This document shows positions 18,001 to 41,853 of a DNA stretch of 64,000 nt, piece after piece. Source of the stretch: Chlamydiota bacterium (GTDB lineage: Bacteria > Auribacterota > Tritonobacteria > UBA1439); assembly GCA_037133055.1 (NCBI GenBank), contig JBAXOY010000002.1:2985-66984 (forward strand). The letters run 5' to 3'. The translations under genes were made by a program, and so were the position numbers. The notes below the pieces were generated by a model. That model was not told the DNA's origin. It did not search any database and was given only the letters and a program-made list of their open reading frames with translations. How positions within the stretch are numbered: position 1 is the stretch's first letter; each line of letters begins with the position of its first letter.

Positions 18001-19286
18001 GTGCCGGTGATATGGACGGGGATGGGAGGTCCGAGCTGGCAATAACCTGCAGTGACGCCAAGGCATATCTCTTCAATTACCGGGGCGAACTGCTGCCGGG
18101 ATGGCCGCGGAGCATGAATGAGTCGTTTTCCGGAGACGCATTCTCGAACGCCGCACTGGCGGATGTGGACGGCGACGGCCGCGCGGAGGTCGTCGTCGCG
18201 GCAAGCAGCCTCATCAACAACGGAACGGAGTATATGGTGGAGCGTTGTAAAATATATGCCTTTACCATGGAGGGACAAACGCTCTCCGGATGGCCCAAGG
18301 TGCTGAAATCCTATGCCGAACCCATGAATACTCCCGCGCTCGGCGATTTCGACGGGGACGGTCTCGTGGAAATGATCGCCCTTGGCTCCGGTTTCCCGTA
18401 CAGCGAGTTATGCGTGTGGGAGCTGGACAGCGCGTATGACGATGCCGGAATGCCGTGGCCGATGCATCGTCACGACAGCTCCCGCACGGCGGGCGGCCCG
18501 CCTCTCATAGCCCTCCCGACAAGGACACCCACGGAAACGCCCACGGCAACCCCCACGCCGACCCGGACGCCGACACGAACGCCCACGCCCACTCCGACCG
18601 CGGTGCCGCACATTATTGTCAATCAGGCATGCCCGTTCACCAGCCCCGGGGAGTACGTTGAGCTCTACAACAATGGAAGCTCACAGACCAACCTCCAGGG
18701 ATGGAAGCTCAATGTTTATCAGAACGATTATATCTTCAGTGATTCAGATATAATTCCCGCGCACGGATTCTTCCTGATCTCCGACACAAGCCCGGTCAAT
18801 GGCCTCACTCCCGATGTGACATACGATATAAACATAAGTGACAACGGATCAAACAGCTACGTCCAGCTTTTGAACGCCTCCTCTGAGGTGATGGACACAG
18901 TGGGATGGGCGAGTTCCTCTCTTTACGAGGGGACACGGTTGGGAACGCTTGGAACAAATAAGGTCTGGAAACGCGTTACCGATGGATTTGACACGGACAA
19001 CAACAGCAGCGACTTCTCGCAAGTTGCCCCGAATCCCAGGAACAGTTCGTATCACCCGCCGACCGCAACTCCGACATTGACGCCCACCATAATTCCCACA
19101 CCCACGATACCACCGACGCCGACCCCCTGGGAATTCCCGAGGAGGATCAATTACCAACCTGCCGGGGCCGCGCCCGCTCCAGGATATGCGGTAGATGACG
19201 GATCCGACTATGGACCGCGCGGGGAGCATTATTACGGCTGGCGGCACTACAATGCCTCAGCCCATCCCTCGGGCGTGCCGAGGTGA
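15072..19286 (+). CDS. multidomain secreted S8 subtilisin-like peptidase with FG-GAP/VCBS-like repeats, a PT-rich linker, a lamin-tail domain, and the C-terminal NYQP...YGWR motif
   Basis: It has the catalytic triad motifs VIDTGVD, HGTHCAGTIAA and GTSMACPHVAG. There are many D.DGDGR.E integrin-like repeats. The linker is TPTETPTATPTPTRTPTRTPTPTPT. The lamin-tail-like region is NQACPFTSPGEYVELYNNG...GWKL. The tail is INYQPAGAAPAPGYAVDDGSDYGPRGEHYYGWR. Confidence 0.85.
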   Translation: MITFILAMSLFGLSLPPGNPMPRIPTPDNPQARHPLVAKVLAGDGTARYVKSGTDGKADDSRTECAPRELLVKLRDQSAQSGRNGMAAASRTYTAGALAAKYNAGARRLFPGQPRGALRSGVALSRIYKITLGNGSVPHAVADCARCPDIEWAEPNYIRTTCLTPDDTYFNASGAWGQAYRDMWGLEKIQAEQAWDISTGSSAITVAVIDTGVDYTHADIAAHIWTNTDEIPGDGLDNDGNGYIDDYRGWDFCNGDNNPIDDHGHGTHCAGTIAAVTNNATGISGICWNARIMALKFLNSGGSGTDADAAQAIVYAADNGANVLSNSWGGTGVSETLRTALRYAHDQGCVIVAAAGNSSADVRNFGPACENTVVSVAASDHADKKSSFSNWGPKIDVAAPGGSGTEADGDNRLGADILSLRAAGTDMGGDGKCIVGGNYYRARGTSMACPHVAGLAALVLSHNPAFSNEEVRQVLHRGADDIESAGWDMKTGFGRINALKSLETAAVSVSYISSPHCGDTLSSTVAINGRAFGGNFASYALECGPGSEPQSWSLIAQSAIQIMDGVLGQWDTAYAADGYYTLRLTVNNGDGTTDRYLLSVTVKNTEITSPDDGDCVKAGTIVIIRGSSIAPSFQSYVLEWGKSNAYYWPSIWKTDGISLEHGGQQPVLEGTLGSFDTSVITAPGNYLLRLRTLSGAGESKDCSNLIIDPDLRDGWPQPFERSWAGIGSEAVRWSPNVADIDGDGRAEIFVDGLYNQTAGGDSVYSFDLDGMPFSGFNQPDYDIRWVPSLADLNGDGRCEVIGGRGPGAGYFSVFQHDKTVLSGWECNLPITPFTATADLDADGHLEIVGISSGSIYVLDDRGGVLPGWPLYFGTIWELPAVGDVDDDGYQEIAFVINNAQSPAQAAVYDYTGHPLPGWPLQLGDSSYRASPALCDIDGDQDLEIAVNDSQHVYVYHHDGQPAQGWPQAVAGIVTSPSAGDMDGDGRSELAITCSDAKAYLFNYRGELLPGWPRSMNESFSGDAFSNAALADVDGDGRAEVVVAASSLINNGTEYMVERCKIYAFTMEGQTLSGWPKVLKSYAEPMNTPALGDFDGDGLVEMIALGSGFPYSELCVWELDSAYDDAGMPWPMHRHDSSRTAGGPPLIALPTRTPTETPTATPTPTRTPTRTPTPTPTAVPHIIVNQACPFTSPGEYVELYNNGSSQTNLQGWKLNVYQNDYIFSDSDIIPAHGFFLISDTSPVNGLTPDVTYDINISDNGSNSYVQLLNASSEVMDTVGWASSSLYEGTRLGTLGTNKVWKRVTDGFDTDNNSSDFSQVAPNPRNSSYHPPTATPTLTPTIIPTPTIPPTPTPWEFPRRINYQPAGAAPAPGYAVDDGSDYGPRGEHYYGWRHYNASAHPSGVPR

Positions 19287-19606: not shown

Positions 19607-20782
19607 TCAATATCCCATAAGACCGCAGCAACGGGCGCATATAGGAAAGAGCCCCTCTTTCTTCAGCGCCCGGCGGAAGCGGCGGTATCGCTCGTTGTTG
19701 AAGATTTTTGAGAGGGGCTGTTCACGGATGTTCCCCGCCACGAAGTCGGGGTAGTCGCGGCATGTGGCAACATCACCGTTGGGGAGGATGAGAGCCATGT
19801 AGTACGGCGCCAGGCAGCGGCGAAAGCCGAAGAGGCTGGAAGGGTTTTGGTAGTACTCCCGGATGGCGGTATCGTCGGGCAGGTTGGGGATGTAGAGATA
19901 CGGGAAGGGCCACCTGCGCTCTTCGAGGGCCCGGCGCCCGGCGATGAGGGCCTCCACGTCGATTCCCGTGGAACTGCCGCAGTATCCCCGCCACGACGTG
20001 GGCGTTTCGCCGAAGTGGCGCTCGAAGCACGCCTGATGGGCGCGGCCGATGGCCTCGTTGGTGAACCATGAATAATACACCCCGACGAAGTCGACCTTTT
20101 CTTCCGCGCAAATCTCGAAGGTTTCCGGCAGTGCGCGGGTGTTCTCCCGGTTGACGGTTATGAGCGCAACGAGGTACGGATGCATGCCCCCGCCGGCGGC
20201 CCGGGCCGAGCGCACCGCGGCAAGGCCCCGGCGGAGACGCCCGAAGGCGCCCGGCAGCCCCCGGACCCTGTCGTGGATCTCAGCGGGTCCATCGAGGCTC
20301 ACCATAAGCACCTCAAGCCCGGAGGCCACGATCCAGTCCGCGTTCTCGGCCAGGGTCGTTCCGTTGGTTACCATAGAGACAAAGAGGCCACGGGCCTTGA
20401 ATTCCTCGACCACTCGGCGTATGTCAGGGTAGAGCAGCGGCTCACCGCCCCAAATGTAGATGACGGGCCTCCACGCGGAGATCTCCTCTGCCAGCCGGGC
20501 GTAATTCTCGGCCGTGCACTCGCCGGCCCTGAGTTCTGCCACGCTCTTGCCAAGGTTATAGCCTTTTTCGCCCCACTGGGCGCACATGGCGCAGCGCATA
20601 TCGCACCGATTGGTGATCTTCAGGTCCAGTTGCATCGGGGGCAGGAAGCTCCTGCCCCCGCCGAACCAGTAATCGACGTACGACGTTGCCTTCCGACGAG
20701 CGACCCCGCGGGCCAGCAACCGTAGGAGTTCCGGTTTGGTCTTCAGGATCTTGTGGACGATGGACCAGGAGAGCCTATTCAT
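19607..20782 (-). CDS. radical SAM enzyme with a C-terminal Cys-rich SPASM/twitch-like extension
   Basis: It has the CDMRCAMC (CxxxCxxC) cluster and the GGEP-like motif IWGGEPLLY. The C-terminus carries additional cysteines (CRDYPDF, PICARCCGLMGY). There is no recognisable precursor-binding (RRE) domain. Confidence 0.8.
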   Translation of the reverse strand: MNRLSWSIVHKILKTKPELLRLLARGVARRKATSYVDYWFGGGRSFLPPMQLDLKITNRCDMRCAMCAQWGEKGYNLGKSVAELRAGECTAENYARLAEEISAWRPVIYIWGGEPLLYPDIRRVVEEFKARGLFVSMVTNGTTLAENADWIVASGLEVLMVSLDGPAEIHDRVRGLPGAFGRLRRGLAAVRSARAAGGGMHPYLVALITVNRENTRALPETFEICAEEKVDFVGVYYSWFTNEAIGRAHQACFERHFGETPTSWRGYCGSSTGIDVEALIAGRRALEERRWPFPYLYIPNLPDDTAIREYYQNPSSLFGFRRCLAPYYMALILPNGDVATCRDYPDFVAGNIREQPLSKIFNNERYRRFRRALKKEGLFPICARCCGLMGY

Positions 20783-20906
20783 TGCGTTATCTTATCACCG
20801 AGGCGTATTTCCATGCCATACATTCATCCCCGCTTTCATGCATCACCCTGAAACTTGCGTGAAAGTGATTGACAAATACCGACGTCGTTGTAAGGACAGG
20901 GGCACT

Positions 20907-20973
20907 GTCCAAATCTGGTACAAATCCTACCACTGCGTAGAACCCATGAACCTATACAACCCTTTCGATGGCA
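20907..20973. repeat. non-coding repeat family A, full-length copy (GTCCAAATCTGGTACAAATCCTACCACTGCGTAGAACCCATGAACCTATACAACCCTTTCGATGGCA)
   Basis: It lies in the AT-rich divergent intergenic region between the radical-SAM and MBL-fold genes. It is related to the copies at 32375-32425 and 32524-32574. The GGTACAAATCC core resembles a tRNA T-arm. Confidence 0.5.
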
Positions 20974-21123
20974 TACGCTCTACAGGAACGCTCTACAGGA
21001 GTAGGTGTCGAAATACCCCCCTTATGGCAAAACTTCCCCACCCCGGACAAAATTGATTTGACATTATCATGGAATAATGCTATAAGGTATTGAATACTAA
21101 TCACCTGAAATGGAGATACCTCC

Positions 21124-22329
21124 ATGATCACAAGATGTAGCGTGGTATTTTTTTCATCAGCACTTCTTATTTTTTCTGCAGCGGTTGACCCCGGATATTC
21201 TCAGAGCCTTGACATTTACTGCATTGAGGTAGGGCTTGATGATGCGCCCCCTGACACAAACGCGCAGGGTGACTCGACCCTCATTCTCTCCCCGGATGGA
21301 TCTACCCGTGTGCTGATTGACGGAGGCATGGGGAAAGAAAACGGCGCGGATTCCGTGCTCGCCTGTTTAAGCAGGGTGATACCGACGGGCGGCCTCACCG
21401 CTATGATCGCCACGCATTGGGATGCGGATCACTATCAGGGCCTTTCGGATATTGCGGATAATGTCGCCACCGGCATGCAGTATATGCCGACGACCATCTA
21501 TGATCTCGGCGATATAGGCAGCGACCCTTCATGGACGTATAAAACCACGTTCGAGGGCAGGCGGGTGACCCCCACCGTCGGGACCACGCTTGACCTCGGC
21601 GGGGGCTGCTCAATACGTTTCGTCACTATCAACGGAAACATCCTTGGCGGGGGATTCAAGGATCCGGTCGTCAATGGGGAGGACGTGAGCAATGCCCGGA
21701 GCATCGGCGTGGTCGTACGCTACGGTGGATTTGATTACCTGACCTGCGGTGACCTCGAGGGCGTAGATCTTAGCGACCCTTATTATTATGTGAATACCGA
21801 GGGACCGCTGGGGGCAGCTCTCGCTGCCGAAGGCACTCATATCGACGTGCTCCACGCAAACCACCACGGGAGTAGCCTCTCGACGATCAGCGCCTTCGTG
21901 TCGGCAATCGGCCCTGAATACGCGGTGATCTCGTGCGGCGATGGCAATACCTATGAGCATCCCACTCAGTCGGTGATAAACAGGCTGAGCGGTTTGTCCC
22001 AGATATACCTCCTCGAACAGGGGACTCCCCGGACCGGATCGAATATCACCATCGTCGGGAATGGGAATATGCCGGGCTATCCCGGCGATCCCACCGAGCA
22101 GGGGAGTTTGCATATTTCCGTCAGCGACGGCGGACGCCGGTTTACCTTTTCGAATGAAGGGCCGAATACCAACGGCTTTATCGACGGCCCCTATGATTCA
22201 AGTGAGCTGACGAGGGTGAATTTCCAGCCCGCGGCATCGTCGACGCCGAGCGGATACTACAAAGACTCCGGCGCCGCCTACTCCTCCCATGCCGGTCCCA
22301 ACGGTGCGCTGAGCTATGGGTGGCGCTGA
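21124..22329 (+). CDS. secreted metallo-beta-lactamase-fold hydrolase (ComEC-C-terminal-like) with the C-terminal VNFQP...YGWR motif
   Basis: It has a signal peptide and the MBL motif ATHWDADHYQG (HxHxDH-type), with a later HANHHG. The tail is VNFQPAASSTPSGYYKDSGAAYSSHAGPNGALSYGWR followed by a stop. Confidence 0.7.
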   Translation: MITRCSVVFFSSALLIFSAAVDPGYSQSLDIYCIEVGLDDAPPDTNAQGDSTLILSPDGSTRVLIDGGMGKENGADSVLACLSRVIPTGGLTAMIATHWDADHYQGLSDIADNVATGMQYMPTTIYDLGDIGSDPSWTYKTTFEGRRVTPTVGTTLDLGGGCSIRFVTINGNILGGGFKDPVVNGEDVSNARSIGVVVRYGGFDYLTCGDLEGVDLSDPYYYVNTEGPLGAALAAEGTHIDVLHANHHGSSLSTISAFVSAIGPEYAVISCGDGNTYEHPTQSVINRLSGLSQIYLLEQGTPRTGSNITIVGNGNMPGYPGDPTEQGSLHISVSDGGRRFTFSNEGPNTNGFIDGPYDSSELTRVNFQPAASSTPSGYYKDSGAAYSSHAGPNGALSYGWR

Positions 22330-22517
22330 TGCCCCTACGGCACTCCCCGCCCTCGCCAAGGGGCAATAATGTGCGAAGCTTCCCTGTCCTAACGACCGCA
22401 TCATGAAACCGTGATTCTGGAGGAAATGGGTAAGACTCGAGAGAGATTCACCCGAATATGACCGATGAGGAGGGAAAAAGCGCGGGAAGAAGCACCACAA
22501 CTCCTCCATCGCCTCAG

Positions 22518-22572
22518 GCCGTGAGCCCCATCCGCTGTATGTCTCTGGCACCCTGTCTCCCCCCCCTCGTAC
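22518..22572. repeat. non-coding repeat family R, copy 1 (…GCCCCATCCGCTGTATGTCTCTGGCACCCTGTCTCCCCCCCC…)
   Basis: It is about 85% identical to 32294-32349. Both copies lie just 3' of plus-strand genes. Confidence 0.5.
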
Positions 22573-22608
22573 TCGCGTAGGCAAGCGCAGATAACAACCG
22601 GCATCAGC

Positions 22609-22743
22609 TCACTTTTTCCCGCCGAAGATATTCTTGAAAAAGTCCCTTGTCGCCCTGCCGAAACCCATGAAGAAGCGGCCGGTCCCCTTGCCGGACTCTG
22701 TCCCCGCGTGACCCACCTTCTCGGCGACGTTGAATCGCTTCAT
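22609..22743 (-). CDS. candidate 44-aa Gly-rich small protein (MKRFNVAEKVGHAGTESGKGTGRFFMGFGRATRDFFKNIFGGKK)
   Basis: An ATG is preceded by AAAAAGGAGATATCGCTA, a strong ribosome-binding site. It lies in the 750-nt gap before the glucan synthase gene. It is below the ORF-track cutoff. Confidence 0.3.
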   Translation of the reverse strand: MKRFNVAEKVGHAGTESGKGTGRFFMGFGRATRDFFKNIFGGKK

Positions 22744-23076
22744 TAGCGATATCTCCTTTTTGTAAGGGGTCACGTACAGTGGGTATTTTTACCCCCCACC
22801 CCCGCCCGCCTTACCTGAGCGAGAGCGATGGCGGGCAAGCCGGCCCTCCATCCGCCAAAGGAGGACAATCCTCAAGCTTGCTCGCCTTCGGCGGGGGAGG
22901 AGGGGGATAATGTGGAAGCCCCCCAGGAGTGACCCCATGCTCCCCGGCGCGTTTTTCAACCTCTCTGCTTCCTCCCCTGTGGTAAAATTCCATTTGCGGA
23001 GGGGAGAATCACGCGAATCCGAGAAGCCGATACCCACTCCGGGGTATGCGATGTAGATAGCTCCCGATTTACAGAG

Positions 23077-26000
23077 GTGCGTGAAGCGCATATGAGTGAA
23101 CAGGCTATCTTGCTCAGTTTCTATTTGAATGATACAGACGCCGGCGAGGCATTGCGGCAGCTGCGTCATGCGCGGTTCAGGCGCTCGGTATCCATACACA
23201 AATCGGCCGAGGGGCGCATTCGCACCGACGGCAGCTCCCTGCGACACGGCGTATTCTGGGGGATTGTCAGCGGCCTGCTGTGCGGCGTTCTCGCCGGGAT
23301 AGGCATGGCGCGTCTGCCGTGGCTGTTCGGCGGCGTGGCGGGCTACCTCGCGCTGGGCATGCCGGTGCTGGCCGGGTGGGTGATCGGGTGGTTCACCATA
23401 CGCAGGGTGAGTCTCGGCCTCGACGAGAAACTGGTGGAGAATCACGCCCGCTGGCTTACGGCCGATGAGACCGTCGTCATCGTCCAGGACTTCCCGGAGG
23501 CGGTGAGCAGGGCGATCTCTCTGCTCCGGAGCACAGGGGAGAGCCAGCCCGCCATTTTCATCATTCGCCGGCAGCCCGGCGGCCCGATCGACGGTGAACC
23601 GGTCCAGGGCGAACCGTTGGCCGCCGCCCGGCTTCAACGGTATGCCCGGCGCCTCGCATCCACACACCGCGTCAAGGCGGATGTAGGGCGCGAAGAGCCC
23701 CTCCTGCGGCAACTCGGCCTGTGCGAGGAGGTCATCGAACGCGTGCGCCAGGAACTCGCTGAGGCCTCCCGCATGGAGCACACCATCTCCGCCACGGCGG
23801 AGTGGATCCTCGACAATGCCTACATCATACAGGGACAAATCGACGACGTCAGGATGCACCTGCCGAAAAAGTTCTATCACGAGCTGCCGGTCCTCGCGTC
23901 CGAACCCGGCAACGGCCAGCCGCGGATCTACCATCTCGCCGCGGAGTTGATCCAGCACGCCGACAGCTACCTGGACCGCAACAATATCAACGAATTCTTG
24001 ACGGCGTATCAATCGGTCTCGCCGCTGACGATCGGCGAGCTCTGGGCGGCGCCGCTGATGCTGCGGATCGCACTGCTTGATATCCTGCGGCGATTGACCG
24101 AGCAGATCGACCGGCGGCTGCACGAGCAGGAGCGCGCCGACTTCTGGGCCAATCGCCTGCTCACCGCGGCGAGGCGCGATCCCAATCAGTTGTTCTTCAT
24201 CCTGGCCGAATTGGCCCGTGAGCAGCCCGACCCAAGCGCGCATTTCGCCTTCCAGCTCACCGGCCCCCTGTACGATGCGGAGGCCGCGCTGGTCCCGGTC
24301 CGGAGCTGGCTGGAACGCACGCTGGGCCGCGGGCTCGGCGAGACCGTCATCCAGGGAGAGTCCCGGCAGGCTGCCGACCAGGTCTCCATCGGCAACGCGA
24401 TCACGAGCCTGAGGCAGCTCTCGAGGCTGGACTGGCGTGAGATCTTTGAGCGCCAGAGCCGGGTCGAGGCGATTTTGTGCAACGATCCGGCGGGCGTCTA
24501 TCACCGTATGGACTTCGCCACCAAGGATAGATATCGCCACGCGGTTGAGGAGATTTCCCGCGATTCGACGACGTCGGAGGAGGGTGTCGCCCAGGCCGCC
24601 GTTGAGATGGCCGGCGGGCACCCGGACCGCGCCGCGGGGGATCAGCGCCTCGGGCATGTCGGATATTACCTGATCGACGAAGGCCGTCACGCGCTTGTCT
24701 CGCAGCTGCAGGGCCATGAAAAGAGCCGGTACAGGGCGCTGCAATGGGTGTACCGTCATCACACCGTGCTCTACCTGTCGGCCATAGGATCGGCAACAGC
24801 CCTGATCATCGGCGCCATTTTCGGATACGGCGTCTGGATGACCGGGCGGGCGGGGTTGACCGCGGTCGCGGCGCTCCTCGCCCTCCTTCCGGCCAGCGAG
24901 CTCGCCATCCAGGCGGTTAATTACCTCGTGACCCGCCTTGTGCCGCCCGGGACGCTGCCGAAGATGTCGTTCGAGAAGGAGGGCATCCCCGATGAGTTCC
25001 GCACGCTGGTCGTCGTGCCGATGCTCTTTCTGGACCGCCGGACCATCCGCGAAGATCTCTACAAGCTGGAGGTCCGTTATTGCGCGAATCCGGAAGCGAA
25101 CATACTGTTCGGCCTCTTCGGGGACCTGCCCGACGCGGACACGCAGCACAAGGACACGGACGCCGGCCTGTTGCGCCAGGCCGTCGAGGGGATCACCGGC
25201 CTCAACGCGCGGTACGGCGAGGGCCGATTTTACCTGTTTCACCGCGAGCGTGAATGGGTTGAAACAGAGGGGCGATTCATAGGGTGGGAGCGCAAGCGGG
25301 GCAAGCTCGAGGAACTGAACCGGCTGTTGAACGGCGCTTCTCCCCGCGACGGACGGAAGATCGTTCACGTGGGCGATCCGCACAAGCTCGCGAACATCCG
25401 CTACGTGATCACCCTCGACAGCGACACCCAGCTGCCGCGCGCCAGCGCCCGGCGCATGATCGAAACCATTTCCCACCCGCTGAACCGCGCGAGGCTCAGC
25501 CCGGATGGCCGCATGGTCATCGGCGCCTACGGCGTCATTCAGCCGCGCATCAGCATCTCGCTGCCCAGCGCGGCGGCGACCCCCTTCAGCCGTCTGTACA
25601 CCGATCCCGTCGGCACCGACCCCTACACCAGGGCGGTGTCGGACGTGTACCAGGATCTGGCGGGCGAGGCCTCTTATCTCGGCAAGGGGATCTACGAACC
25701 GCGGATGTTTTACCGCGTTCTCGCCGGCCGGTTCCCTGAGCAGCTGCTTCTCAGCCACGACCTTATCGAGGGCGCGCATGTGAGGGTGGGGCTTGCGAGC
25801 GATATCGAACTCTACGAGGAGTTCCCCCCGGATTATATTTCCTATATAAGCCGGCAACATCGCTGGATCTGCGGCGACTGGCAGATCGCCGACTGGTGCA
25901 TGCCCCGCGTGCCGACGCCCGAGGGGACGCGCGCGCCCAATCCCCTCTCGGTGCTGAATCGGTGGAAGATATTCGACAACCTCAGGCGGAGCCTGGTGCC

Positions 26001-29000
26001 GGTCGCATCCGCCGTGCTCCTTGTCGCATCCTGGCTGCTTTCGCCGGCGCTGGGCGCCGCTGCCGGCATCCTCGTCGCCCTGCCGGTGATCTTTTCGCCC
26101 CTCGCGCAACTTCTCACCTGGGTGACGACCGCGCCGGGATCGGGAAAGGTCTCATGGGGCGAACTGGGCCATGGTATCTCCCGCTCGTTCGTGGGGGCGG
26201 CCCTTATTCCGCACCAGGCAATCCTCGCCACGGACGCGATTGTGCGGGTCTGGTACCGCCGCCTGGTCAGCACGCGTAGGCTGCTCGAGTGGACGCCGGC
26301 TCAGATAGCAAAGTGGAAGACCCGCGGCCGCGCCCCCGCCTTCCTGGCGCGTGTGAGCCTCATCAGCCTTTTCTCGCTCGGCGTCGGAATTGCCGTGTGG
26401 CTGCGTGAACCGGCCGGACTCCCTCTCGCAGCGCCGTTTCTGGCCCTGTGGCTGCTCAGCCCGCTGATCGTGTGGCGGCTGTGTGCCAAGCCCCGCCGGA
26501 AGCCGCCGCGCGGGCTGGTTTCGCGCGGCGATGCGCAGATGCTGAGGAGCATAGCCCGGCAATCCTGGCGCTATTTTGACGACTATGTCGGCCCCGAATC
26601 GGGCTGGCTCCCCCCGGATAACTACCAGATCTCCCACCAGAACAGCATCGCCCTGCGCACGAGCCCGACGAATATAGGCCTGTGGCTTCTGAGCGCGGTC
26701 GCGGCATACGATTTCGGCTACCTGGCCGGCGACGAGGTCATCCGGCGCCTTGGAGAGACGTTCGCAACCCTCGGCGGACTCGTGCGATACGAGGGCCACC
26801 TCCTGAACTGGTACGACCTGAAAACGCGCGCGCCCTTTGAGCCGCGCTATGTGTCTACCGTGGACAGCGGCAACCTGCTCGGCTGCCTGTGGGCCATGGA
26901 GCACGGCATCGGCGATCTGACCGACGGGCCGCTGATCGGCCCGCAGGCCATCCGGGGGTTGTATGACGCGCTCGGGATCCTGCGCGATCTGATACCCCGG
27001 ACTCCCCGTGATGACGAGCTCCTCGGGGCCATGGGGGCGCTCGAGAAGCTTCTGTGCGATCCACCGGAACGGCTCGACGAGATCATCCGCCGAATCCGCC
27101 AGGCGGCAGCGCCGGCGGGGGTCGTTGCGCAAGTGCTTCGACAGGGCGACGGGGCGGGCAGCGAGCCCTCCTACTGGGCGGAGGCGCTCGTGCGACAGCT
27201 CGCTGGCTGGGGTGCGTTCGTCGACCGCTACCTGGCATGGGTGGAGATGCTGCCCGCCGAATTGGAAGGGGTTCTGATCCGGCTCGGGCCCGAGGTGCGT
27301 GACGCCCCCCGACAGGCGCTGAGGGAGGCTCCCTCAGCGCGGTCCCTTGCGGCCGGGGCTGTTCCCATGTATATGGCCCTCAGGGCGGTGCGAGGGAAGG
27401 CGGGAGAGCATTCCGCGCCGCTCGGGGAGTGGATAGACCGGTTCAGCGAAGCCTTTTCCCGGGCGCAGGGGCCGGCTGGCGAATTGTGCGCGCGGGCTGA
27501 CGATCTCCTCCGGCGCAGCAGGGACCTTGGCAACGGCATGAATATGCGGTTCCTCTATGACCCCGACCGGCGGTTGTTCAGCATCGGCTTCAATGCCAGC
27601 GAGCAACGGCGCGACACCTCGTACTACGACCTTTTTGCCAGCGAGGCCAGGCTGGGCAGTTTCGTGGCGATCGCGCGAGGCGACGTCCCGAGCGCGCACT
27701 GGCTGGCGATGGCCCGGCCGTTCGGCTCGATCGGGAACCGCCGGGTGCTGCTCAGCTGGGGCGGCACCATGTTCGAGTACCTGATGCCGCTGCTGCTTCA
27801 GCGCGTATTCCCCCATTCGCTGCTGGAGAGGGCCTGTCGCGAAGCGGTCGGCGCGCAGATAGCCTATGCGCGCCGGCAGGGAGTGCCCTGGGGGATTTCG
27901 GAGTCGGCCTACAGCGACCTGGACGCGAATAAGACGTATCAGTACCAGGCCTTCGGCGTGCCGGGGCTGGGGCTGAAACGGGGACTCGAAGACGACCTGG
28001 TTGTCGCCCCGTATGCATCAATGCTGGGGCTCCTGGTGGATCCGGCGGCGGCGGTGCGCAACCTGAAATGGCTTGCGCGGCTCGGGCTTCATGGCGGCCA
28101 TGGATTTTTCGAGGCGATCGATTTCGGAAGGCAGCGCCGACGCGAGGGCGGCCGCGGGGTGATCGTGCGCGCCTACATGGCGCACCACCAGGCGATGGGG
28201 TTCCTTGCGATCGACAATTTCATCAACGATTCCGTGATGCAGCGGCGCTTTCACTCCGACCCGCGGGTCAGAGCGACCGAATCGCTGCTGTATGAGCGCA
28301 TTCCGATTTCGCCCCCGCGCTACCAGGTGCCGACGCGCGAACGGGCCGCCTCGCGCGTGATGCCCACGGGGATTGCCCCGGCGGCCGGCAGGTTTGAAAC
28401 GCCGCACTCGGTCACGCCCAAGACGCAGCTCTTCTGCAACGGGCGCTACTCCCTGATGGTGACCAGCGCCGGGGGGGGATACAGCCGATGGCGGGATTTC
28501 GATGTCACGCGCTGGCGGGCGGATTCCACCTGCGACGAGTGGGGTGCGTTCTGCTACATCCGTGACGTGCGGAGCGACCGGGTGTGGTGCACTACGTATC
28601 AGCCCGTCCGCGGCGCGACGGACAAGTACGCGGTCACCTTCACTGTGGACCGGGCCGAGTTCCGCCGCTCGGACGGCGACATCGACACCGAGACCGAGAT
28701 CGTGGTGTCGCCCGAAGACGACGCGGAGATCCGCCGCATCGCCCTGGTCAACCGCTCCGGACGCAAAAAGAAGCTGGAGCTGACCAGCTACATGGAGCTT
28801 GCCCTCGCCCCGCATGGCGTGGATCGCCAGCATCCCGCGTTCAACAAAATGTTTGTGTGCACGGAGGCGATCGAAAAGCGCGGCGCGCTGCTCGCGTTCC
28901 GGCGCCCGCGCAACCTGGACGACCCGCCGATCTATGCGGCGCACTGCATGACATTCGAGACAGGGACGAAAGGCGCGATGCAGTTCGAGACGGACAGGGG

Positions 29001-32000
29001 GCGGTTCATCGGGCGCGGCCGCACCACCGGCAATCCGGCTGCGTTGTTTGGCGCCTTGTCGCAAAGCGCCGGACATGTGCTCGATCCGATTTTCAGTCTG
29101 CGTCGCACGGTGGTGCTGGAACCGGGACAGCGCGTGCACGTGTCTCTCGTCCTCTGCGTCGCCGAGTCGCGCAAGGACGCCCTGGCGCTGGTCGAGAAGT
29201 ACAGCGACCCCCAGACGATCACGCGGGAGCTCGATCTCGCGTGGACGTACGCCCAGGTGGAGCTCCGTCGCCTGCGCATCGAGCCGGACGAGGCCCGCCG
29301 TTTTCAGCAGCTCGCCAGCTACATGCTGTATCCCAGCTCCAAGCTCCGGCCGGCATGGGATCGCCTGCAGCAGAACCGGCTGGGCCAGTCGCGCCTGTGG
29401 CCCCATGGCATCTCGGGCGACCTCCCGATAGCCGCGATCAGCATCGGGGAGTCGGGCGACATCAGCCTCGTGCGCCAGATGCTCCAGGCGCACGCCTACT
29501 GGCGCCTCCACGGCCTGAAGGCGGACCTGGTCATACTCAACGAGGAATCCAGCGGCTATGAGCAGCCGTTGCAGGAAGAACTGAAGAGGCTTGTCAATTC
29601 CCATTCGATGCACGCCGGCGTTGATCAGCCCGGCGGGGTCTTTCTGCGCAGCGCGGACCACATCCCGGATGAGGACCTGACGCTGATACTCTCCGCCGCC
29701 CGCATAGCGCTGGTGGCCGCCCGCGGCCCCCTGTCCCAGCAGCTTGGCGCGCCGACGGAGGCGGCGGAGCTCCCCGCCCCGCTGCCTGTCCGCGCCATCC
29801 CTGAAGAGCCCTCGCTCCCCTTGCCGTTCATGGAGTTGCCGTACTTCAACGGTCTGGGTGGCTTCACCCCCGACGGCCGCGAGTACGCGATCTATCTCGG
29901 CCCCGGGGCGCACACGCCGGCGCCGTGGGTGAATGTGATCGCCAACCCGAGCTTCGGCGCCCTGGTCAGCGAGTCGGGCGCGGGCTTCGCCTGGTACGGC
30001 AACAGCCAGCAGAACCGCCTGACGGACTGGTCCAATGACCCGGTCTCCGACACGCCGTCCGACGCGCTATATATCCGCGACCAGGAAACGGGAAAGTTCT
30101 GGACGCCCACCCCCCTGCCGGTCCGGGAGATGGACGCCTACCGCGCGCGGCATGGCGCGGGCTACACCGTTTTTGAACACAACAGCCACGCCATCCAGCA
30201 GGAGCTCATTACCTTTGTGCCGATGGATGAAAACGGTGGAGAACCGGTTCGCGTGCAGCGGCTCCGGCTGCGCAACGACTCATCACGCATACGGCGACTG
30301 GCGGTCACCTTCTACGTCGAGTGGACTCTCGGCGAGAACAGGGAGGACAGCCAGACGCACGTGATAAGCCAGTGGGACGGCGAGACGCGAACCATGCTGG
30401 CCCGTAACCGCTACCACCCGACGTACGGCGACCGCGTCGCCTTCGCCACGATCAGCCCCGCGCCCAACAGCTATACCGCCGACCGCACCGGCTTCCTCGG
30501 GCGCAACGGGACCTTGGCCGCGCCCGCCGCCATGAAGCGCACCCGCCTGGCGAGCCGCGTCTGGCCGGGGCTCGACCCGTGCGCCGCCGTGCAGGTGGCG
30601 CTGAATCTGCCGCCGGGGGAAAACGCGGAGGTGACCTGCCTGCTCGGACAGGCAGGCTCGATCGAAGAGGTCGGTCGCCTGGTCCGGAAATACCGCGATC
30701 CCGCCGAAGTGGAGGAATCCCTGAAGCGCACGATCGCATGGTGGGACCGGCTGTCGGGAACCATCCAGGTCAGCACCCCGGAGAAGTCGGCGGATATCCT
30801 GTTGAATCGCTGGCTGCCGTACCAGACGCTGAGCTCGAGGATCTGGGGACGGACCGGGTTCTACCAGTCGAGCGGGGCGTTCGGATTCCGCGACCAGCTC
30901 CAGGACGTGACGGCAATGGTATACGCGGAGCCTGACATCGCCCGGCGGCACATACTGCTCGCGGCGGGCCGCCAGTTCAGCGAGGGAGACGTTCAGCACT
31001 GGTGGCAGCCGCCGTCCGGCGCGGGCATACGGACACGCTGTTCCGATGACATGCTCTGGCTGCCGTACGTGGTGGCCCGTTATGTTCGTTTCACGGGCGA
31101 TGCGGGAATCCTGAACGAGCGCATCCCTTTCATCGAGGACCGGGTGCTAGATGAAAAAGAGCATGAGGTCTTTATGACTCCGCACGAGTCCATGGACAGC
31201 GCCACGCTCTACGAGCACTGCCGCCGGGCGATTGTTCGCGGAGCAAGTTCAGGGCCTCACGGTCTGCCCTTGATCGGCAGCGGTGATTGGAACGACGGCA
31301 TGAACCGGGTGGGCATCAAGGGGATCGGAGAGAGCGTCTGGCTGGCATGGTTTCTCATAGATGTGCTCAATGCGTGGGCCGGGATGGCGGAGCTGCACGG
31401 CAGCCCGGAGCATGCGGCCGCATGCCGCGAGAAGGCCCGAACGCTTGCCGAGGCCGTCGAGCGACATGCCTGGGACGGGGGATGGTACCTCCGGGCCTTT
31501 TATGACGATGGCACGCCGCTCGGTTCGGCGGCGAGCGAGGAGGCCCGCATCGACTCACTGCCCCAGTCATGGGCGGTGCTCAGCGGCGCTGCCGACCCCG
31601 AGCGGGCGGCGCGGGCGGTCGAGTCCGCACTTGAGCAGCTGGTGCTCAAGGAAGAAAATCTTGTACTGCTGCTCGCGCCGCCGTTCGACAGAACAGAGAA
31701 GAACCCGGGCTACATCAAGGGGTATCCCCCCGGCGTCCGGGAGAACGGAGGCCAGTACACACATGCCGCGTTATGGCTGGCAATGGCACTCTGCCGGCGG
31801 GGCGACGGGGACCGGGCGGTTTCGCTGCTGCGGATGATCAACCCGATCGAGCGTGCGCGCGACCCGGAAGCCGTGAAACGCTACAGGGTCGAGCCGTACG
31901 TGACCGCCGGCGACGTCTATCGCCTGCCGGAACGGGTCGGTCAGGGCGGCTGGACCTGGTATACCGGTTCCGCGGCCTGGATGTATCGCATCTGGATCGA

Positions 32001-32283
32001 GGAGGTGCTCGGCATGAAGATTTCCGGCAAGGGGCTCCTCATCGATCCGGTCATCCCTCCAGGCTGGAAGCAGTTCGGCATCCGCTATCGCCGGGGCGAG
32101 GCGCTCTACGATATTGCCGTCGAAAACCCCGAGGGGGCACGCCGCGGTGTGGCGTGGGTGGAGATGGATGGCCGGCGCCTGGAAGGATCTCTCATCCCGC
32201 TGGAGGAACTGTCGATCAGGCACAAGGTTGTCGTGCGGATGGGCAAGGGCGACCCCGGTGACGCGGCTGCGGTGAAAATCTGA
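23077..32283 (+). CDS. ndvB: cyclic beta-1,2-glucan synthase (NdvB/ChvB/Cgs type; N-terminal TM region + GT84 glycosyltransferase + C-terminal GH94 phosphorylase-like domain)
   Basis: 3068 aa. It has N-terminal TM helices and the GT84-like DxD region (ITLDSDTQLPRASARRMIETISHPLN). The C-terminal GH94-like block runs from GDWNDGMNRVG to WYTGSAAWMYRIW. Its size and layout are typical of cyclic glucan synthases. Confidence 0.85.
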   Translation: MREAHMSEQAILLSFYLNDTDAGEALRQLRHARFRRSVSIHKSAEGRIRTDGSSLRHGVFWGIVSGLLCGVLAGIGMARLPWLFGGVAGYLALGMPVLAGWVIGWFTIRRVSLGLDEKLVENHARWLTADETVVIVQDFPEAVSRAISLLRSTGESQPAIFIIRRQPGGPIDGEPVQGEPLAAARLQRYARRLASTHRVKADVGREEPLLRQLGLCEEVIERVRQELAEASRMEHTISATAEWILDNAYIIQGQIDDVRMHLPKKFYHELPVLASEPGNGQPRIYHLAAELIQHADSYLDRNNINEFLTAYQSVSPLTIGELWAAPLMLRIALLDILRRLTEQIDRRLHEQERADFWANRLLTAARRDPNQLFFILAELAREQPDPSAHFAFQLTGPLYDAEAALVPVRSWLERTLGRGLGETVIQGESRQAADQVSIGNAITSLRQLSRLDWREIFERQSRVEAILCNDPAGVYHRMDFATKDRYRHAVEEISRDSTTSEEGVAQAAVEMAGGHPDRAAGDQRLGHVGYYLIDEGRHALVSQLQGHEKSRYRALQWVYRHHTVLYLSAIGSATALIIGAIFGYGVWMTGRAGLTAVAALLALLPASELAIQAVNYLVTRLVPPGTLPKMSFEKEGIPDEFRTLVVVPMLFLDRRTIREDLYKLEVRYCANPEANILFGLFGDLPDADTQHKDTDAGLLRQAVEGITGLNARYGEGRFYLFHREREWVETEGRFIGWERKRGKLEELNRLLNGASPRDGRKIVHVGDPHKLANIRYVITLDSDTQLPRASARRMIETISHPLNRARLSPDGRMVIGAYGVIQPRISISLPSAAATPFSRLYTDPVGTDPYTRAVSDVYQDLAGEASYLGKGIYEPRMFYRVLAGRFPEQLLLSHDLIEGAHVRVGLASDIELYEEFPPDYISYISRQHRWICGDWQIADWCMPRVPTPEGTRAPNPLSVLNRWKIFDNLRRSLVPVASAVLLVASWLLSPALGAAAGILVALPVIFSPLAQLLTWVTTAPGSGKVSWGELGHGISRSFVGAALIPHQAILATDAIVRVWYRRLVSTRRLLEWTPAQIAKWKTRGRAPAFLARVSLISLFSLGVGIAVWLREPAGLPLAAPFLALWLLSPLIVWRLCAKPRRKPPRGLVSRGDAQMLRSIARQSWRYFDDYVGPESGWLPPDNYQISHQNSIALRTSPTNIGLWLLSAVAAYDFGYLAGDEVIRRLGETFATLGGLVRYEGHLLNWYDLKTRAPFEPRYVSTVDSGNLLGCLWAMEHGIGDLTDGPLIGPQAIRGLYDALGILRDLIPRTPRDDELLGAMGALEKLLCDPPERLDEIIRRIRQAAAPAGVVAQVLRQGDGAGSEPSYWAEALVRQLAGWGAFVDRYLAWVEMLPAELEGVLIRLGPEVRDAPRQALREAPSARSLAAGAVPMYMALRAVRGKAGEHSAPLGEWIDRFSEAFSRAQGPAGELCARADDLLRRSRDLGNGMNMRFLYDPDRRLFSIGFNASEQRRDTSYYDLFASEARLGSFVAIARGDVPSAHWLAMARPFGSIGNRRVLLSWGGTMFEYLMPLLLQRVFPHSLLERACREAVGAQIAYARRQGVPWGISESAYSDLDANKTYQYQAFGVPGLGLKRGLEDDLVVAPYASMLGLLVDPAAAVRNLKWLARLGLHGGHGFFEAIDFGRQRRREGGRGVIVRAYMAHHQAMGFLAIDNFINDSVMQRRFHSDPRVRATESLLYERIPISPPRYQVPTRERAASRVMPTGIAPAAGRFETPHSVTPKTQLFCNGRYSLMVTSAGGGYSRWRDFDVTRWRADSTCDEWGAFCYIRDVRSDRVWCTTYQPVRGATDKYAVTFTVDRAEFRRSDGDIDTETEIVVSPEDDAEIRRIALVNRSGRKKKLELTSYMELALAPHGVDRQHPAFNKMFVCTEAIEKRGALLAFRRPRNLDDPPIYAAHCMTFETGTKGAMQFETDRGRFIGRGRTTGNPAALFGALSQSAGHVLDPIFSLRRTVVLEPGQRVHVSLVLCVAESRKDALALVEKYSDPQTITRELDLAWTYAQVELRRLRIEPDEARRFQQLASYMLYPSSKLRPAWDRLQQNRLGQSRLWPHGISGDLPIAAISIGESGDISLVRQMLQAHAYWRLHGLKADLVILNEESSGYEQPLQEELKRLVNSHSMHAGVDQPGGVFLRSADHIPDEDLTLILSAARIALVAARGPLSQQLGAPTEAAELPAPLPVRAIPEEPSLPLPFMELPYFNGLGGFTPDGREYAIYLGPGAHTPAPWVNVIANPSFGALVSESGAGFAWYGNSQQNRLTDWSNDPVSDTPSDALYIRDQETGKFWTPTPLPVREMDAYRARHGAGYTVFEHNSHAIQQELITFVPMDENGGEPVRVQRLRLRNDSSRIRRLAVTFYVEWTLGENREDSQTHVISQWDGETRTMLARNRYHPTYGDRVAFATISPAPNSYTADRTGFLGRNGTLAAPAAMKRTRLASRVWPGLDPCAAVQVALNLPPGENAEVTCLLGQAGSIEEVGRLVRKYRDPAEVEESLKRTIAWWDRLSGTIQVSTPEKSADILLNRWLPYQTLSSRIWGRTGFYQSSGAFGFRDQLQDVTAMVYAEPDIARRHILLAAGRQFSEGDVQHWWQPPSGAGIRTRCSDDMLWLPYVVARYVRFTGDAGILNERIPFIEDRVLDEKEHEVFMTPHESMDSATLYEHCRRAIVRGASSGPHGLPLIGSGDWNDGMNRVGIKGIGESVWLAWFLIDVLNAWAGMAELHGSPEHAAACREKARTLAEAVERHAWDGGWYLRAFYDDGTPLGSAASEEARIDSLPQSWAVLSGAADPERAARAVESALEQLVLKEENLVLLLAPPFDRTEKNPGYIKGYPPGVRENGGQYTHAALWLAMALCRRGDGDRAVSLLRMINPIERARDPEAVKRYRVEPYVTAGDVYRLPERVGQGGWTWYTGSAAWMYRIWIEEVLGMKISGKGLLIDPVIPPGWKQFGIRYRRGEALYDIAVENPEGARRGVAWVEMDGRRLEGSLIPLEELSIRHKVVVRMGKGDPGDAAAVKI

Positions 32284-32293
32284 ACGCACCTCA

Positions 32294-32349
32294 CGCCATC
32301 GGCCCCACCCGCTGCATGTCTCTGGCACCCTGTCTCCCCCCCCGCGTAC
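32294..32349. repeat. non-coding repeat family R, copy 2
   Basis: It begins 11 nt after the stop of the glucan synthase gene and is nearly identical to 22518-22572. Confidence 0.5.
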
Positions 32350-32374
32350 AGCCGGCGCGCCGTACGGAGAGGGA

Positions 32375-32425
32375 CTTTGTCCGCATCGGGTACAAATCCG
32401 GCCCCTTCGCAGAACCAATGACCTA
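32375..32425. repeat. non-coding repeat family A, partial copy B1 (GTCCGCATCGGGTACAAATCCGGCCCCTTCGCAGAACCAATGACCTAGAC)
   Basis: It matches the 5' two-thirds of the copy at 20907-20973. Confidence 0.5.
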
Positions 32426-32523
32426 GACTGATGTGACCCGCGGAGCGGTGTAACTATCTGCGAGAGAGAAAGAATGCTAGTGGTACGATAAGCGGGGGAG
32501 GGGTCATTCTGAATCGATCCCAC

Positions 32524-32587
32524 CATATCCAACCACTACGTAGAACTCACGACCTAGCCAACCGCTCGATGGCAGATGTGATCTGCC
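32524..32587. repeat. non-coding repeat family A, partial copy B2, ending in a perfect 7-bp hairpin (GGCAGATgtgATCTGCC)
   Basis: ATCCAACCACTACGTAGAACTCACGACCTAGCCAACCGCTCGATGGCA matches the 3' two-thirds of the copy at 20907-20973. The hairpin at 32571-32587 is read directly from the sequence. Confidence 0.5.
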
Positions 32588-32960
32588 ATCTAACTGCAAC
32601 CGGCACTATTTTCGTGGATCAGATCAAGTGTCAGACAATAATCGGGGGCTCGCCCTGATTTGGTGATCTAGATTAAACAAGGTGAAAGCAGTTCTTTATA
32701 CCATCCATGAATATATCCGTTTTATGGTATCTTACACGGAATCTATCTAACACCCCATCTGCGCCCGGGGTTTAAGAAGCCTGATGAATAAGAACGCTGA
32801 AAGAGAACGGTTGCAGGAAGAGCGAAGCGGCGGGATTCCATGGAAATAGTGGGGTCCCTATTTGAGCGAGGGCCTGAGGCGGCAGGGGGGGGCCGCAGAG
32901 GGGGAAAGCAGGCGAAGTAAATTCAGAAATCCATTACCCCGGCATACAGAAAGGAACATA

Positions 32961-34346: not shown

Positions 34347-34754
34347 ATGGCGGATCACTGGCAGAGGATTGTTGAGAATCTTTTTGGCCGGATGGACGGA
34401 CCGCTCCATTTCCGGTTTATCGTGCAGCCGCTGATGGCGGTTTTCTTTGCGATCGTTGACGGGTGTAAAGACGCAAGGGCCGGGAAGCCCGCATATTTCT
34501 GGGCGCTGGTTTTCCATCCGGGGCATCGCAAAGGACTTCTGCGCGACGGTTGGAAGAGTGTGGGCAAGATATTTATCCTCGCGGTCGCGCTTGATATCGT
34601 CTATCAGTTAAAAGTTCAGCATTGGATCTATCCGGGAGAAATACTCATCGTGGCGTGTATTCTGGCGATCGTGCCGTATGTGGTGCTGCGCGGCCCGGTG
34701 AATCGCCTCGTGCGGCGGTTAACCATGAAAAACAATGAAGCGGATCATGCCTGA
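34347..34754 (+). CDS. hypothetical small membrane protein
   Basis: 135 aa with 3 predicted TM helices and no recognisable motif. It is co-directional and overlaps the next gene by 20 nt. Confidence 0.4.
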   Translation: MADHWQRIVENLFGRMDGPLHFRFIVQPLMAVFFAIVDGCKDARAGKPAYFWALVFHPGHRKGLLRDGWKSVGKIFILAVALDIVYQLKVQHWIYPGEILIVACILAIVPYVVLRGPVNRLVRRLTMKNNEADHA

Positions 34755-36048: not shown

Positions 36049-37542
<1,494 letters not shown>

Positions 37543-40736: not shown

Positions 40737-40799
40737 GACCATAGTGGAAGTAGTTATGCCCAAGGAACAAATTGAAGAGGCGCAGCGGATAGCACGGAA

Positions 40800-41711: not shown

Positions 41712-41853
41712 ATTGTGGAGTACGGACCAGGCGTAATAACGTCTATTCAGCAGATACAGTCCCTTCACCACACAAAAGAGGGTCGCAAACTGCGTGACCG
41801 GATGCGACTCTTGACTCAGGGCACATGCACTGTTCGACCCCGTTTCCAGTATC

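Follow-up and report, generated by a model that had tools for sequence, protein, structure and literature searches.

Repeats with an initiator tRNA-fMet-derived core in a Chlamydiota bacterium contig, probable relics of integrase attachment sites

What are the short non-coding repeats that stand around the genes for an MBL-fold hydrolase and a glucan synthase on contig JBAXOY010000002.1 of a Chlamydiota bacterium (assembly GCA_037133055.1)? The stretch of this contig that was analysed, called the window here, comprises 64,000 nucleotides. An earlier reading of its letters, the original prediction, recognized one full copy (A) and two partial copies (B and C) of a 67-nt element with a core reminiscent of the T arm and acceptor 3' half of a tRNA. 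It proposed that the copies are attL and attR scars of an integrated island or, alternatively, elements like miniature inverted-repeat transposable elements (MITEs) or a shared cis-regulatory RNA. The core is found here to descend from the 3' part of initiator tRNA-fMet, and the repeats are probably degenerate attachment (att) sites of small tyrosine-integrase elements that recombined at the T-loop region of tRNA-fMet, surviving as old relics.

The repeats and their tRNA-fMet core

Copies A (20907-20973), B (32375-32425) and C (32524-32574) are related repeats, and the layout first proposed for them, with B made of the 5' part and the core and C of the core and the 3' part, was borne out. In local alignments A and B are identical at 38 of 48 positions (z=14.9) and A and C at 43 of 54 (z=15.1), with none of 1000 shuffles as good in either case. 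Copies B and C agree at 24 of 33 positions (z=4.3, 3 of 1000 shuffles as good), so that the copies in the window are 73-80% identical to one another. When as many as three mismatches are tolerated, the degenerate core ACAAATCCNNCCNCTNCGNAGAAC matches at three sites in the 64 kb against 0.01 expected, and these are A, B and C, all on the + strand.

A hidden Markov model (HMM) of the family lengthens all three copies beyond their first limits and, together with a repeat finder, reveals a fourth fragment that the original prediction did not contain. Copy A extends over 20886..20975 (+; HMM positions 324-412, E=7.7e-15). It consists of a degenerate tRNA-fMet-like segment, formed by a pseudo anticodon arm GGACAGGGGCACTGTCC and a T-loop-like GGTACAAATCC at 20917-20927, followed by the initial ~40 nt of a right arm named S3, ending TCGATGGC; its core pattern match lies at 20920-20943, and it is 81% identical to positions 1627-1708 of L037 (L numbers denote contigs and loci outside the window). 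The fourth fragment, at 22510..22603 (+; HMM positions 254-340, E=1.2e-6), is a left (P-type) arm only, cut off before the T-loop-like core. It was seen by the repeat finder as a 61-nt repeat, 89% identical, between 22512-22572 and 32289-32349, the second of these being the 5' arm of B. Copy B itself (32281..32428, +; HMM positions 248-394, E=1.9e-25) is a left (P-type) arm followed by a degenerate 3' part of tRNA-fMet, and is 77-78% identical to copies in L037, L022 and L031. Copy C (32501..32628, +; HMM positions 338-463, E=3.3e-18) has a short left part and the core (ATATCCAACCACTACGTAGAAC), then the whole right arm S3 ending ...GGATCAGATCA, and is 81-83% identical to copies in L037, L019 and L032. 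Between them, B and C are joined by an alternative right arm, X (CTAGACTGATGTGACCC...GAGAGAGAAAGAATGCTAGTGGTACGATAA; 32429..32500, +), which was delimited by alignments with L018, L026 and L054 and occurs also in L032 from 8124 downstream.

The resemblance of the core to a T arm and acceptor is true homology, to initiator tRNA-fMet. The comparator was the E. coli initiator tRNA-fMet, whose sequence was confirmed as an annotated tRNA-Met gene present in 5,426 of 5,426 genomes. The best-kept tRNA remnant of the window, GGTACAAATCCGGCCCCTTCGCAGAACCA in copy B (32389..32417, +), aligns to positions 52-77 of this tRNA with two 2-nt insertions (z=7.0, none of 200 shuffles as good), and corresponds to the T-loop, the 3' strand of the T-stem, the 3' strand of the acceptor and the ACCA end. 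At the position of copy B, the related loci L018 and L026 have an anticodon arm, TCAGG-CTCATAA-CCTGA, then AGGTC and then the T arm. Indeed, L026 is identical to positions 24-67 of the E. coli tRNA-fMet at 36 of 43 positions (z=15), and L018 matches the same tRNA at 34 of 41 (z=11); the Rfam tRNA model also finds L018 143-195 as a partial match (model positions 8-63, 24.7 bits), below its gathering score of 29. The direct tRNA-fMet signal is z=1.8-3.0 in copy A and none in copy C, and both are tied to the tRNA through the family only. Copies A, B and C are fragments without the tRNA 5' half. A search for intact tRNA genes, as the original prediction advised, gave none: a tRNA or transfer-messenger RNA (tmRNA) gene as the identity of the repeats was rejected, given that ARAGORN reports 0 in the 64-kb window and none in the family-bearing contigs.

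L042 contains, at 531-607 (-), an intact elongator-type tRNA-Met(CAT), the T arm of which, GCTGGTTCGAATCCAGC, is identical to that of the L018 fragment. Because of this identity, two Met-type tRNAs may have contributed sequence to family sites.

A pattern covering all three copies was searched in one genome each for 185,579 species, and its 12 matches were all chance, none with flank similarity. In JGI metagenomes the same pattern occurs at 23 loci, nine of which (L018, L019, L022, L026, L031, L032, L033, L036 and L037, mostly from one sediment sample set) have long flanks in common with the window copies. The pieces in the window are parts of a larger unit, which belongs to an undescribed, lineage-restricted family. 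With L037 1306-1762 as the unit reference for BLAST and HMM mapping, full-length units measure 454-457 nt, begin CGTAGGGTTTCAAAAC and finish ...AGGTCA; no open reading frame (ORF) was found in them. They are 68-82% identical to one another, and two that lie in one contig are 75% identical. By the HMM, 67.9 kb of related contigs contain 21 copies or fragments, on a single strand per contig, and locally there are 3-4 copies per 6-10 kb. One internally deleted copy (L036 5815-5624) retains both ends, and a single head-to-tail unit junction was seen (L031 ~3305: AAATCCC GCCCGTA GGGTTTC). A left boundary that seemed to recur at reference position ~1470 proved to be a variant of the left arm that has diverged further, and no breakpoint. 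Five contigs (L001, L019, L032, L054 and L026) terminate within repeat copies, and the family evidently breaks short-read assemblies of this lineage.

Integrases and hybrid junctions in related contigs

The link to integrases comes from the relatives. L018 encodes, at 366-1703, a 445-aa Phage_integrase protein (PF00589, E=2.5e-15), which starts ~170 nt away from the tRNA-like piece and is encoded on the other strand. This integrase has >1000 homologues at 61-75% identity, several of them labelled Verrucomicrobia by their sources. Seven homologue contexts were taken, and these represent five distinct loci (L049/L051, L052, L053, L056/L057 and L054/L055). In the first four, the integrase starts ~150-190 nt from a 3' fragment of tRNA-fMet, which reads CGTCAGGCTCATAACCTGAAGG..GGTTCAAATCC..CCCCGC(A/T)ACCA and is followed by a terminator (L052 has the variant CTTCCGGCTCATAACC); the tRNA 5' half is not present beside the integrase. 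The native tRNA-fMet 3' end, CCCCGCTACCA, stands beside the integrases of L052 and L053, and L049/L051 and L056/L057 read CCCCGCAACCA. An arm motif, AACCAACAAAACCACCAAC (AACCAACCAATCCACCAAC in L052), is common to these four loci and L018, and the cargo of the L052 island includes an excisionase-like HTH_17 protein, Mrr and MmeI. Since its members start beside tRNA-fMet 3' fragments, the L018-type integrase family appears to target tRNA-fMet. This names the initiator tRNA as the likely target of an abundant integrase family in Verrucomicrobia-type metagenome genomes.

The fifth locus brings integrase and repeat family together. In L054/L055, the integrase P0014, 75% identical to that of L018, is followed in order by an arm, a decayed tRNA fragment, X, a second site and S3, an arrangement collinear with positions 32389-32628 of the window; L026 is the orthologue of this locus. 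The samples from which L054/L055 come (ERZ4223250 and SRR12676969) also contain the window's own MBL gene, and coverage is 7.1 for L054 versus 6.9 for the contig with that gene. In a multiple alignment, the left arm of integrase-less copies (..CTGCCAACCCAACCCGCTGCAT..) is equally far from the T-loop as the integrase-proximal motif, which suggests that the two share descent.

Two further features of these contigs were recorded. At 2071-2219 (+) of L018, with an IS630-type transposase gene on one side and the repeat/integrase region on the other, lies a sequence that matches the c-di-GMP-I-GGC riboswitch aptamer (56.1 bits, E=6.9e-11; gathering score 59) and contains an 83-nt insertion. A possible integrase pseudogene at L019 1853-1924 (15 of 24 residues matching, two stop codons) was too weak and was not used.

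At three places the family is joined directly to tRNA sequence. In L031 at ~5745, L036 at ~465 and L041 at ~9164, the left arm of the family runs to ...TTCGAAT and is then continued by a genuine tRNA 3' end ((A)CCGCCCCCGCTACCA / AGAGCCCCCGCTACCA, also given as ACCGCCCCCGCTACCA or AGAGCCCCCGCTACCA) and a hairpin-T terminator. The L036 junction is the orthologue of that in L031, and the one in L041 is independent. The T-stem strands on either side of these hybrid junctions do not pair, and the crossover therefore probably took place inside the T-loop. The copy at L036 5722 begins at the hybrid switch point, and some copies share only ~25 nt past this point before they diverge into right arm S3 or X. 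The possibility that the CCA-ending hybrids derive from tmRNA was rejected, given that the acceptor is without the G3:U70 signature and ARAGORN was negative; tRNA-fMet is preferred because its native 3' end appears in L052 and L053. The hybrid copy of L041 (9278-9164), which ends CCCCGCTACCA and has a terminator, lies within a cluster of radical-SAM (rSAM) and ketosynthase genes.

Attachment-site relics and rival explanations

The reading held to be probable is that the repeats are degenerate att sites left by small mobile elements, the tyrosine integrase of which would act on the initiator tRNA-fMet gene and recombine in the region of its T-loop. Ancestrally, such a site would have comprised a left arm of ~100-350 nt, a copy of tRNA-fMet from the anticodon stem to the 3' end, and a right arm (S3, X or S1), and the left arm probably bears integrase arm-binding repeats of the CCAAC..AACC type. 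Repeated integration beside earlier sites (tandem accretion), together with loss of the integrase gene and recombination among copies, would have produced integrase-less units of 454-457 nt, truncated pieces and hybrid sites dispersed between unrelated genes. Four old pieces would then remain in the window, bordering the MBL-hydrolase and glucan-synthase segments: copy A, the fragment at 22.5 kb, and the composite B-X-C. These pieces are most likely idle today, except as a substrate for homologous or trans-integrase recombination.

Att relics of tRNA-targeting integrase elements are a known kind of sequence, whereas this family is new. In the Islander framework (PMC4383910), tyrosine integrases insert genomic islands at tRNA or tmRNA genes, and the att sites are displaced tRNA-gene fragments. 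These resemble the sites of the family in being direct repeats of 3' tRNA-gene fragments with a tyrosine integrase adjacent (for the family, in the relatives), and in having hybrid sites that link element DNA to a genuine tRNA 3' end and terminator. Unlike such islands, the window has neither a regenerated tRNA nor an integrase and holds four repeats that are 73-80% identical. The conservation of the family also extends far past the tRNA part, into arms of 100-350 nt, and with its right side tRNA-fMet would not be restored. For ICESt1-type elements and integrative mobilizable elements (IMEs), both tandem accretion and the decay of att-flanked elements have been described, and cis-mobilizable elements (CIMEs) are att-flanked remnants without an integrase (PMC5704250). 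The family is similar in its att arrays with integrase-less segments, and the site-X-site composite fits. Integrase-less full-length and partial units are arranged in arrays, and the composite that stands beside an integrase in L054 has none next to it in the window. Known CIMEs, few elements of several kb, occupy one chromosomal target beside an intact target gene (PMC5704250), unlike the units of the family, which go down to 455 nt without cargo and are dispersed, with no tRNA within 20-30 kb. In Prochlorococcus islands partial tRNAs are scattered and integrases fragmented (10.1101/2020.12.28.424599). The tycheposons of that work are similar to the family in that tyrosine recombinases target tRNA genes, including tRNA-Met(cat); successive integrations drive older elements inward, and the islands bear adaptive cargo. 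The family differs in its host, a metagenome-assembled genome of the Planctomycetes-Verrucomicrobia-Chlamydiae (PVC) group, and in its long conserved arms and 455-nt integrase-less units, which are undescribed there. The family, which is in neither Rfam nor the 185,579 reference species, could mark regions of genome plasticity in this uncultivated group.

Several observations weigh against att relics as the explanation. The right side of the family (..GCC ACTGCGTAGAACCCA) would not reconstitute a functional acceptor stem of tRNA-fMet, and classical tRNA-targeting islands restore this stem (PMC4383910). The 454-457-nt length and the sharp ends are kept at 68-82% identity, which is unexpected for passive scars, and the left flanks of full-length units are without a T-loop-like half-site. 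In the window, no integrase was found by Pfam on the neighbouring genes or by tblastn with the L018 integrase, no other mobile-element gene was seen among the ORFs scanned, and ARAGORN gave no intact tRNA gene. The integrase tie of the window copies comes solely from homology with other contigs, and among family-bearing loci an integrase is present in only two independent cases (L018, and L054 with its orthologue L026). The copy density in the relatives is biased upward, since contigs were chosen by the presence of the motif. No pair of an empty and an occupied site with exact boundaries was found, and shared blocks break elsewhere than in the core too, with the L031/L036 block beginning inside the left arm.

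A different explanation, which is unlikely but has to be taken seriously, is that the copies are still-functional recombination sites of an integron-like or tycheposon-like array for gene shuffling. The 454-457-nt units would be miniature integrative elements or cassette boundaries, with the integrase acting in trans, single genes or small operons would be swapped between sites, and the window copies would be the borders of an MBL and a glucan-synthase cassette. This would account for units that keep their length and both ends despite 18-32% divergence, even at 75% identity within one contig, and for the persistence of both ends in the internally deleted L036 copy. It also suits the dense, one-stranded spacing of the copies in relatives, where they separate a toxin-antitoxin pair, catalase and SOD-Dps, and the presence of an integrase with the same composite in samples that hold the window species; the sequence at the L031 ~3305 junction resembles an inverted-repeat core with a 7-nt spacer. 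Nonetheless, no case of excision or integration polymorphism was seen in which the boundaries were exact, and shared blocks also break within the arms. Some intervening genes are very large (the 9.2-kb glucan synthase, a 1964-aa protein) and some have the opposite orientation, the copies in the window are truncated and only 73-80% identical, and there is one integrase gene per ~70 kb of family-bearing contigs.

As in integron attC arrays, repeats of the same orientation divide single genes or small operons, toxin-antitoxin pairs included, and their similarity is lineage-specific. In contrast to integrons, the linked integrase is a 445-aa phage-type protein (PF00589) beside a tRNA fragment, and no IntI-type gene or attI was seen. 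The units have neither the R''/L''-L'/R' palindrome nor the GTTRRRY core of attC, their ends being CGTAGGGTTTC... and ...AGGTCA; they are 3-8 times longer than attC, and the intervening genes are sometimes very large. It is doubtful that the integrase-less units are maintained trans-mobilisable modules, either a tyrosine-integrase counterpart of MITEs or an integron-like boundary on a tRNA-fMet-derived core. The idea of active modules stays alive because of the odd conservation of length and ends, the right side that does not restore the tRNA, and the left flanks that are without a half-site. If it were true, the length-conserved units would constitute an unusual gene-shuffling system, in which they and a small integrase-only element let a PVC-group lineage shuffle single adaptive genes between many chromosomal sites. 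The genes concerned would be those for catalase, SOD-Dps, toxin-antitoxin pairs and secreted glycan-active enzymes, possibly with the MBL and glucan-synthase segments of the window.

Copy A is flanked by a divergent radical-SAM/SPASM gene (19607-20782, -) on one side and by the gene of the MBL-fold hydrolase (21124-22329, +) on the other, both assigned by Pfam, and the fourth fragment lies between the stop of the MBL gene (22329) and a 44-aa ORF on the - strand. Copy B begins at the stop codon of a 3068-aa gene of the GH94 cyclic-glucan-synthase-like type (23077-32283; Pfam), and copy C is upstream of a bestrophin-like gene. The 44-aa ORF (22610-22744, -), between the MBL and glucan synthase genes, has a GGAG ribosome-binding site, is without a Pfam match and abuts the fourth fragment; public assemblies of its species (L001, L004) call it as a gene. 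Between copy A and the MBL start codon (21124), positions 21058-21086 hold a near-consensus sigma-70-type promoter, TTGACA-17 nt-TATAAG, which the promoter scan skips since the second hexamer has a final G; a separate promoter, situated past copy A, probably serves the MBL gene. Scans for sigma-70 promoters and terminators around the copies gave nothing relevant.

The neighbours of the repeats are variable in related genomes. Orthologues of the rSAM gene that are at least 90% identical have wholly different neighbours: one flank carries SocA/Panacea, a methyltransferase, P63C and IS1595, the other a B12-rSAM and two ketosynthases. Their homology to the window ends ~45-60 nt before copy A. In the window the rSAM/SPASM gene is solitary, and in the close relatives L041-L045 it stands at the head of a cluster made up of the rSAM, a B12-binding rSAM, two ketosynthases and an acetyltransferase. 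L033 has an orthologous glucan synthase (89% DNA identity) with an S3-type copy directly upstream, and an AIG2-like gene in place of the window's MBL. Copies in relatives enclose, among other genes, those for a toxin-antitoxin pair, catalase, SOD with Dps, and very large secreted beta-propeller/BNR proteins. A distance of 45-150 nt separates the repeat ends from the point at which homology with relatives stops, and the search showed no clean empty site.

It is quite unlikely that A and B/C are the attL and attR of a single 11.7-kb island carrying the MBL and glucan synthase genes. The copies do bracket these two genes in direct orientation, the glucan synthase (24-32 kb) has a GC content of 65-68% versus 57-61% in its flanks, and the rSAM neighbourhood upstream of A is wholly different in relatives. 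Nonetheless, the fourth fragment at 22510-22603 splits the segment, the copies are only 73-80% identical, tRNA and integrase are both missing from the window, and the L033 glucan synthase has its own upstream copy without the MBL gene. This last arrangement speaks against the MBL and glucan synthase genes moving as a pair. Of the att-scar idea of the original prediction, the att-derived kind was upheld, on the grounds of integrases beside tRNA fragments in relatives and of the hybrid junctions; a single attL/attR island spanning 20.9-32.6 kb was not supported. With att relics as the preferred explanation, this region would be a mosaic formed through integrase-linked recombination, in which the MBL hydrolase and cyclic glucan synthase segments were separately acquired or reshuffled.

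A non-autonomous transposon of repetitive extragenic palindromic (REP) or MITE type, spread by a DDE or Y1 transposase, is very improbable. Like MITEs, REPs and enterobacterial repetitive intergenic consensus (ERIC) sequences, the family is short, non-coding, multi-copy and intergenic, with truncated variants; its uniform length and sharp ends would suit such a transposon, its single orientation per contig recalls IS200/IS605 derivatives, and one copy has an IS630-type DDE gene nearby (L018 2323-2946). Unlike these elements, full-length units have no terminal inverted repeats (end-to-end alignment scores of 5-8 versus a shuffle mean of ~6), no target-site duplications, the flanks of 5 units being without direct repeats, and no conserved subterminal hairpin; and their core is homologous to a tRNA gene. 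The core and the hybrid junctions in the T-loop point instead to site-specific recombination. An IS200/IS605-like insertion beside CGTAG was rejected, the sole tandem junction being without the expected sequence. The MITE-like alternative first proposed is thus not supported by the ends or flanks of the units. The original prediction had also held that the absence of an intact tRNA with a matching 3' half, together with occurrence at dozens of unrelated intergenic sites, would make the repeat a generic REP/MITE-like one. Many unrelated intergenic sites were indeed found, and the repeat is still tRNA-derived and probably att-derived rather than a REP or MITE.

The predicted hairpin GGCAGATgtgATCTGCC is present at 32571-32587, and its pairing runs on to 10 bp (32568-32577 with 32581-32590). 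In copy C it forms a perfect 10-bp hairpin, GATGGCAGAT gtg ATCTGCCATC, at the imperfect-palindrome position of arm S3 (32568..32590, +). It is perfect in copy C only, 73% of cells pair over 8 copies, and 102 of 500 shuffles equal it. Fold energies are ordinary relative to shuffles for the three copies (z=-1.25, +1.24 and -2.21) and for the full-length unit (+0.96), and the folds of the three copies have no common structure. The consensus fold of core and S3 has -1.1 kcal/mol and 0 compensatory pairs, with the hairpin outside it, and that of the full-length unit has an unfavourable covariation term of +3.4. Rfam gives nothing at gathering score in the window, only noise at E<=10 around the copies, with no RF00005, and no match for the full-length unit. 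A sigma-54 promoter in CTGGCAC-N5-TTTCG was rejected by eye, the GC at -12 missing from all copies. Several S3-bearing copies in relatives lie 130-310 nt upstream of same-strand genes (SOD, glucan synthase, an ice-binding-like gene), and some copies abut convergent genes (L019 6430, L031 2232).

A shared cis-regulatory RNA, a small RNA or a tRNA-like processing signal can hardly be the explanation: the copies stand on the strand of the downstream MBL and bestrophin-like genes, as S3-bearing copies of relatives do before same-strand genes, and the hairpin of copy C is perfect, but this hairpin is not conserved, no Rfam family is matched at E<=10, fold energies are ordinary, the consensus folds are without compensatory pairs or favourable covariation, other copies abut convergent genes, and positions 21058-21086, past copy A, hold a promoter close to the consensus. 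The cis-regulatory RNA first offered as an alternative is set aside on these grounds, and the repeats are struck off as a candidate new riboswitch, small RNA or tRNA gene.

Other features of the window

Two low-GC patches (47% and 50%) occur at positions 1-2000 and 40000-42000. A second radical-SAM/SPASM gene (34735-35964) adjoins a sulfatase gene (36049-37542), the two likely forming an anaerobic sulfatase maturase pair, and another sulfatase gene lies at 43126-45579; these genes are typical PVC-group content and have no relation to the repeats. Pro/Thr-rich coding repeats occur in a subtilase gene and in a 3318-aa ORF (18500-19110, 57830-61640 and 59440-60313), the latter also containing a tandem array of 129-nt coding repeats. 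Similar Pro/Thr-rich repeats are present in the related contigs L018, L032, L036 and L037.

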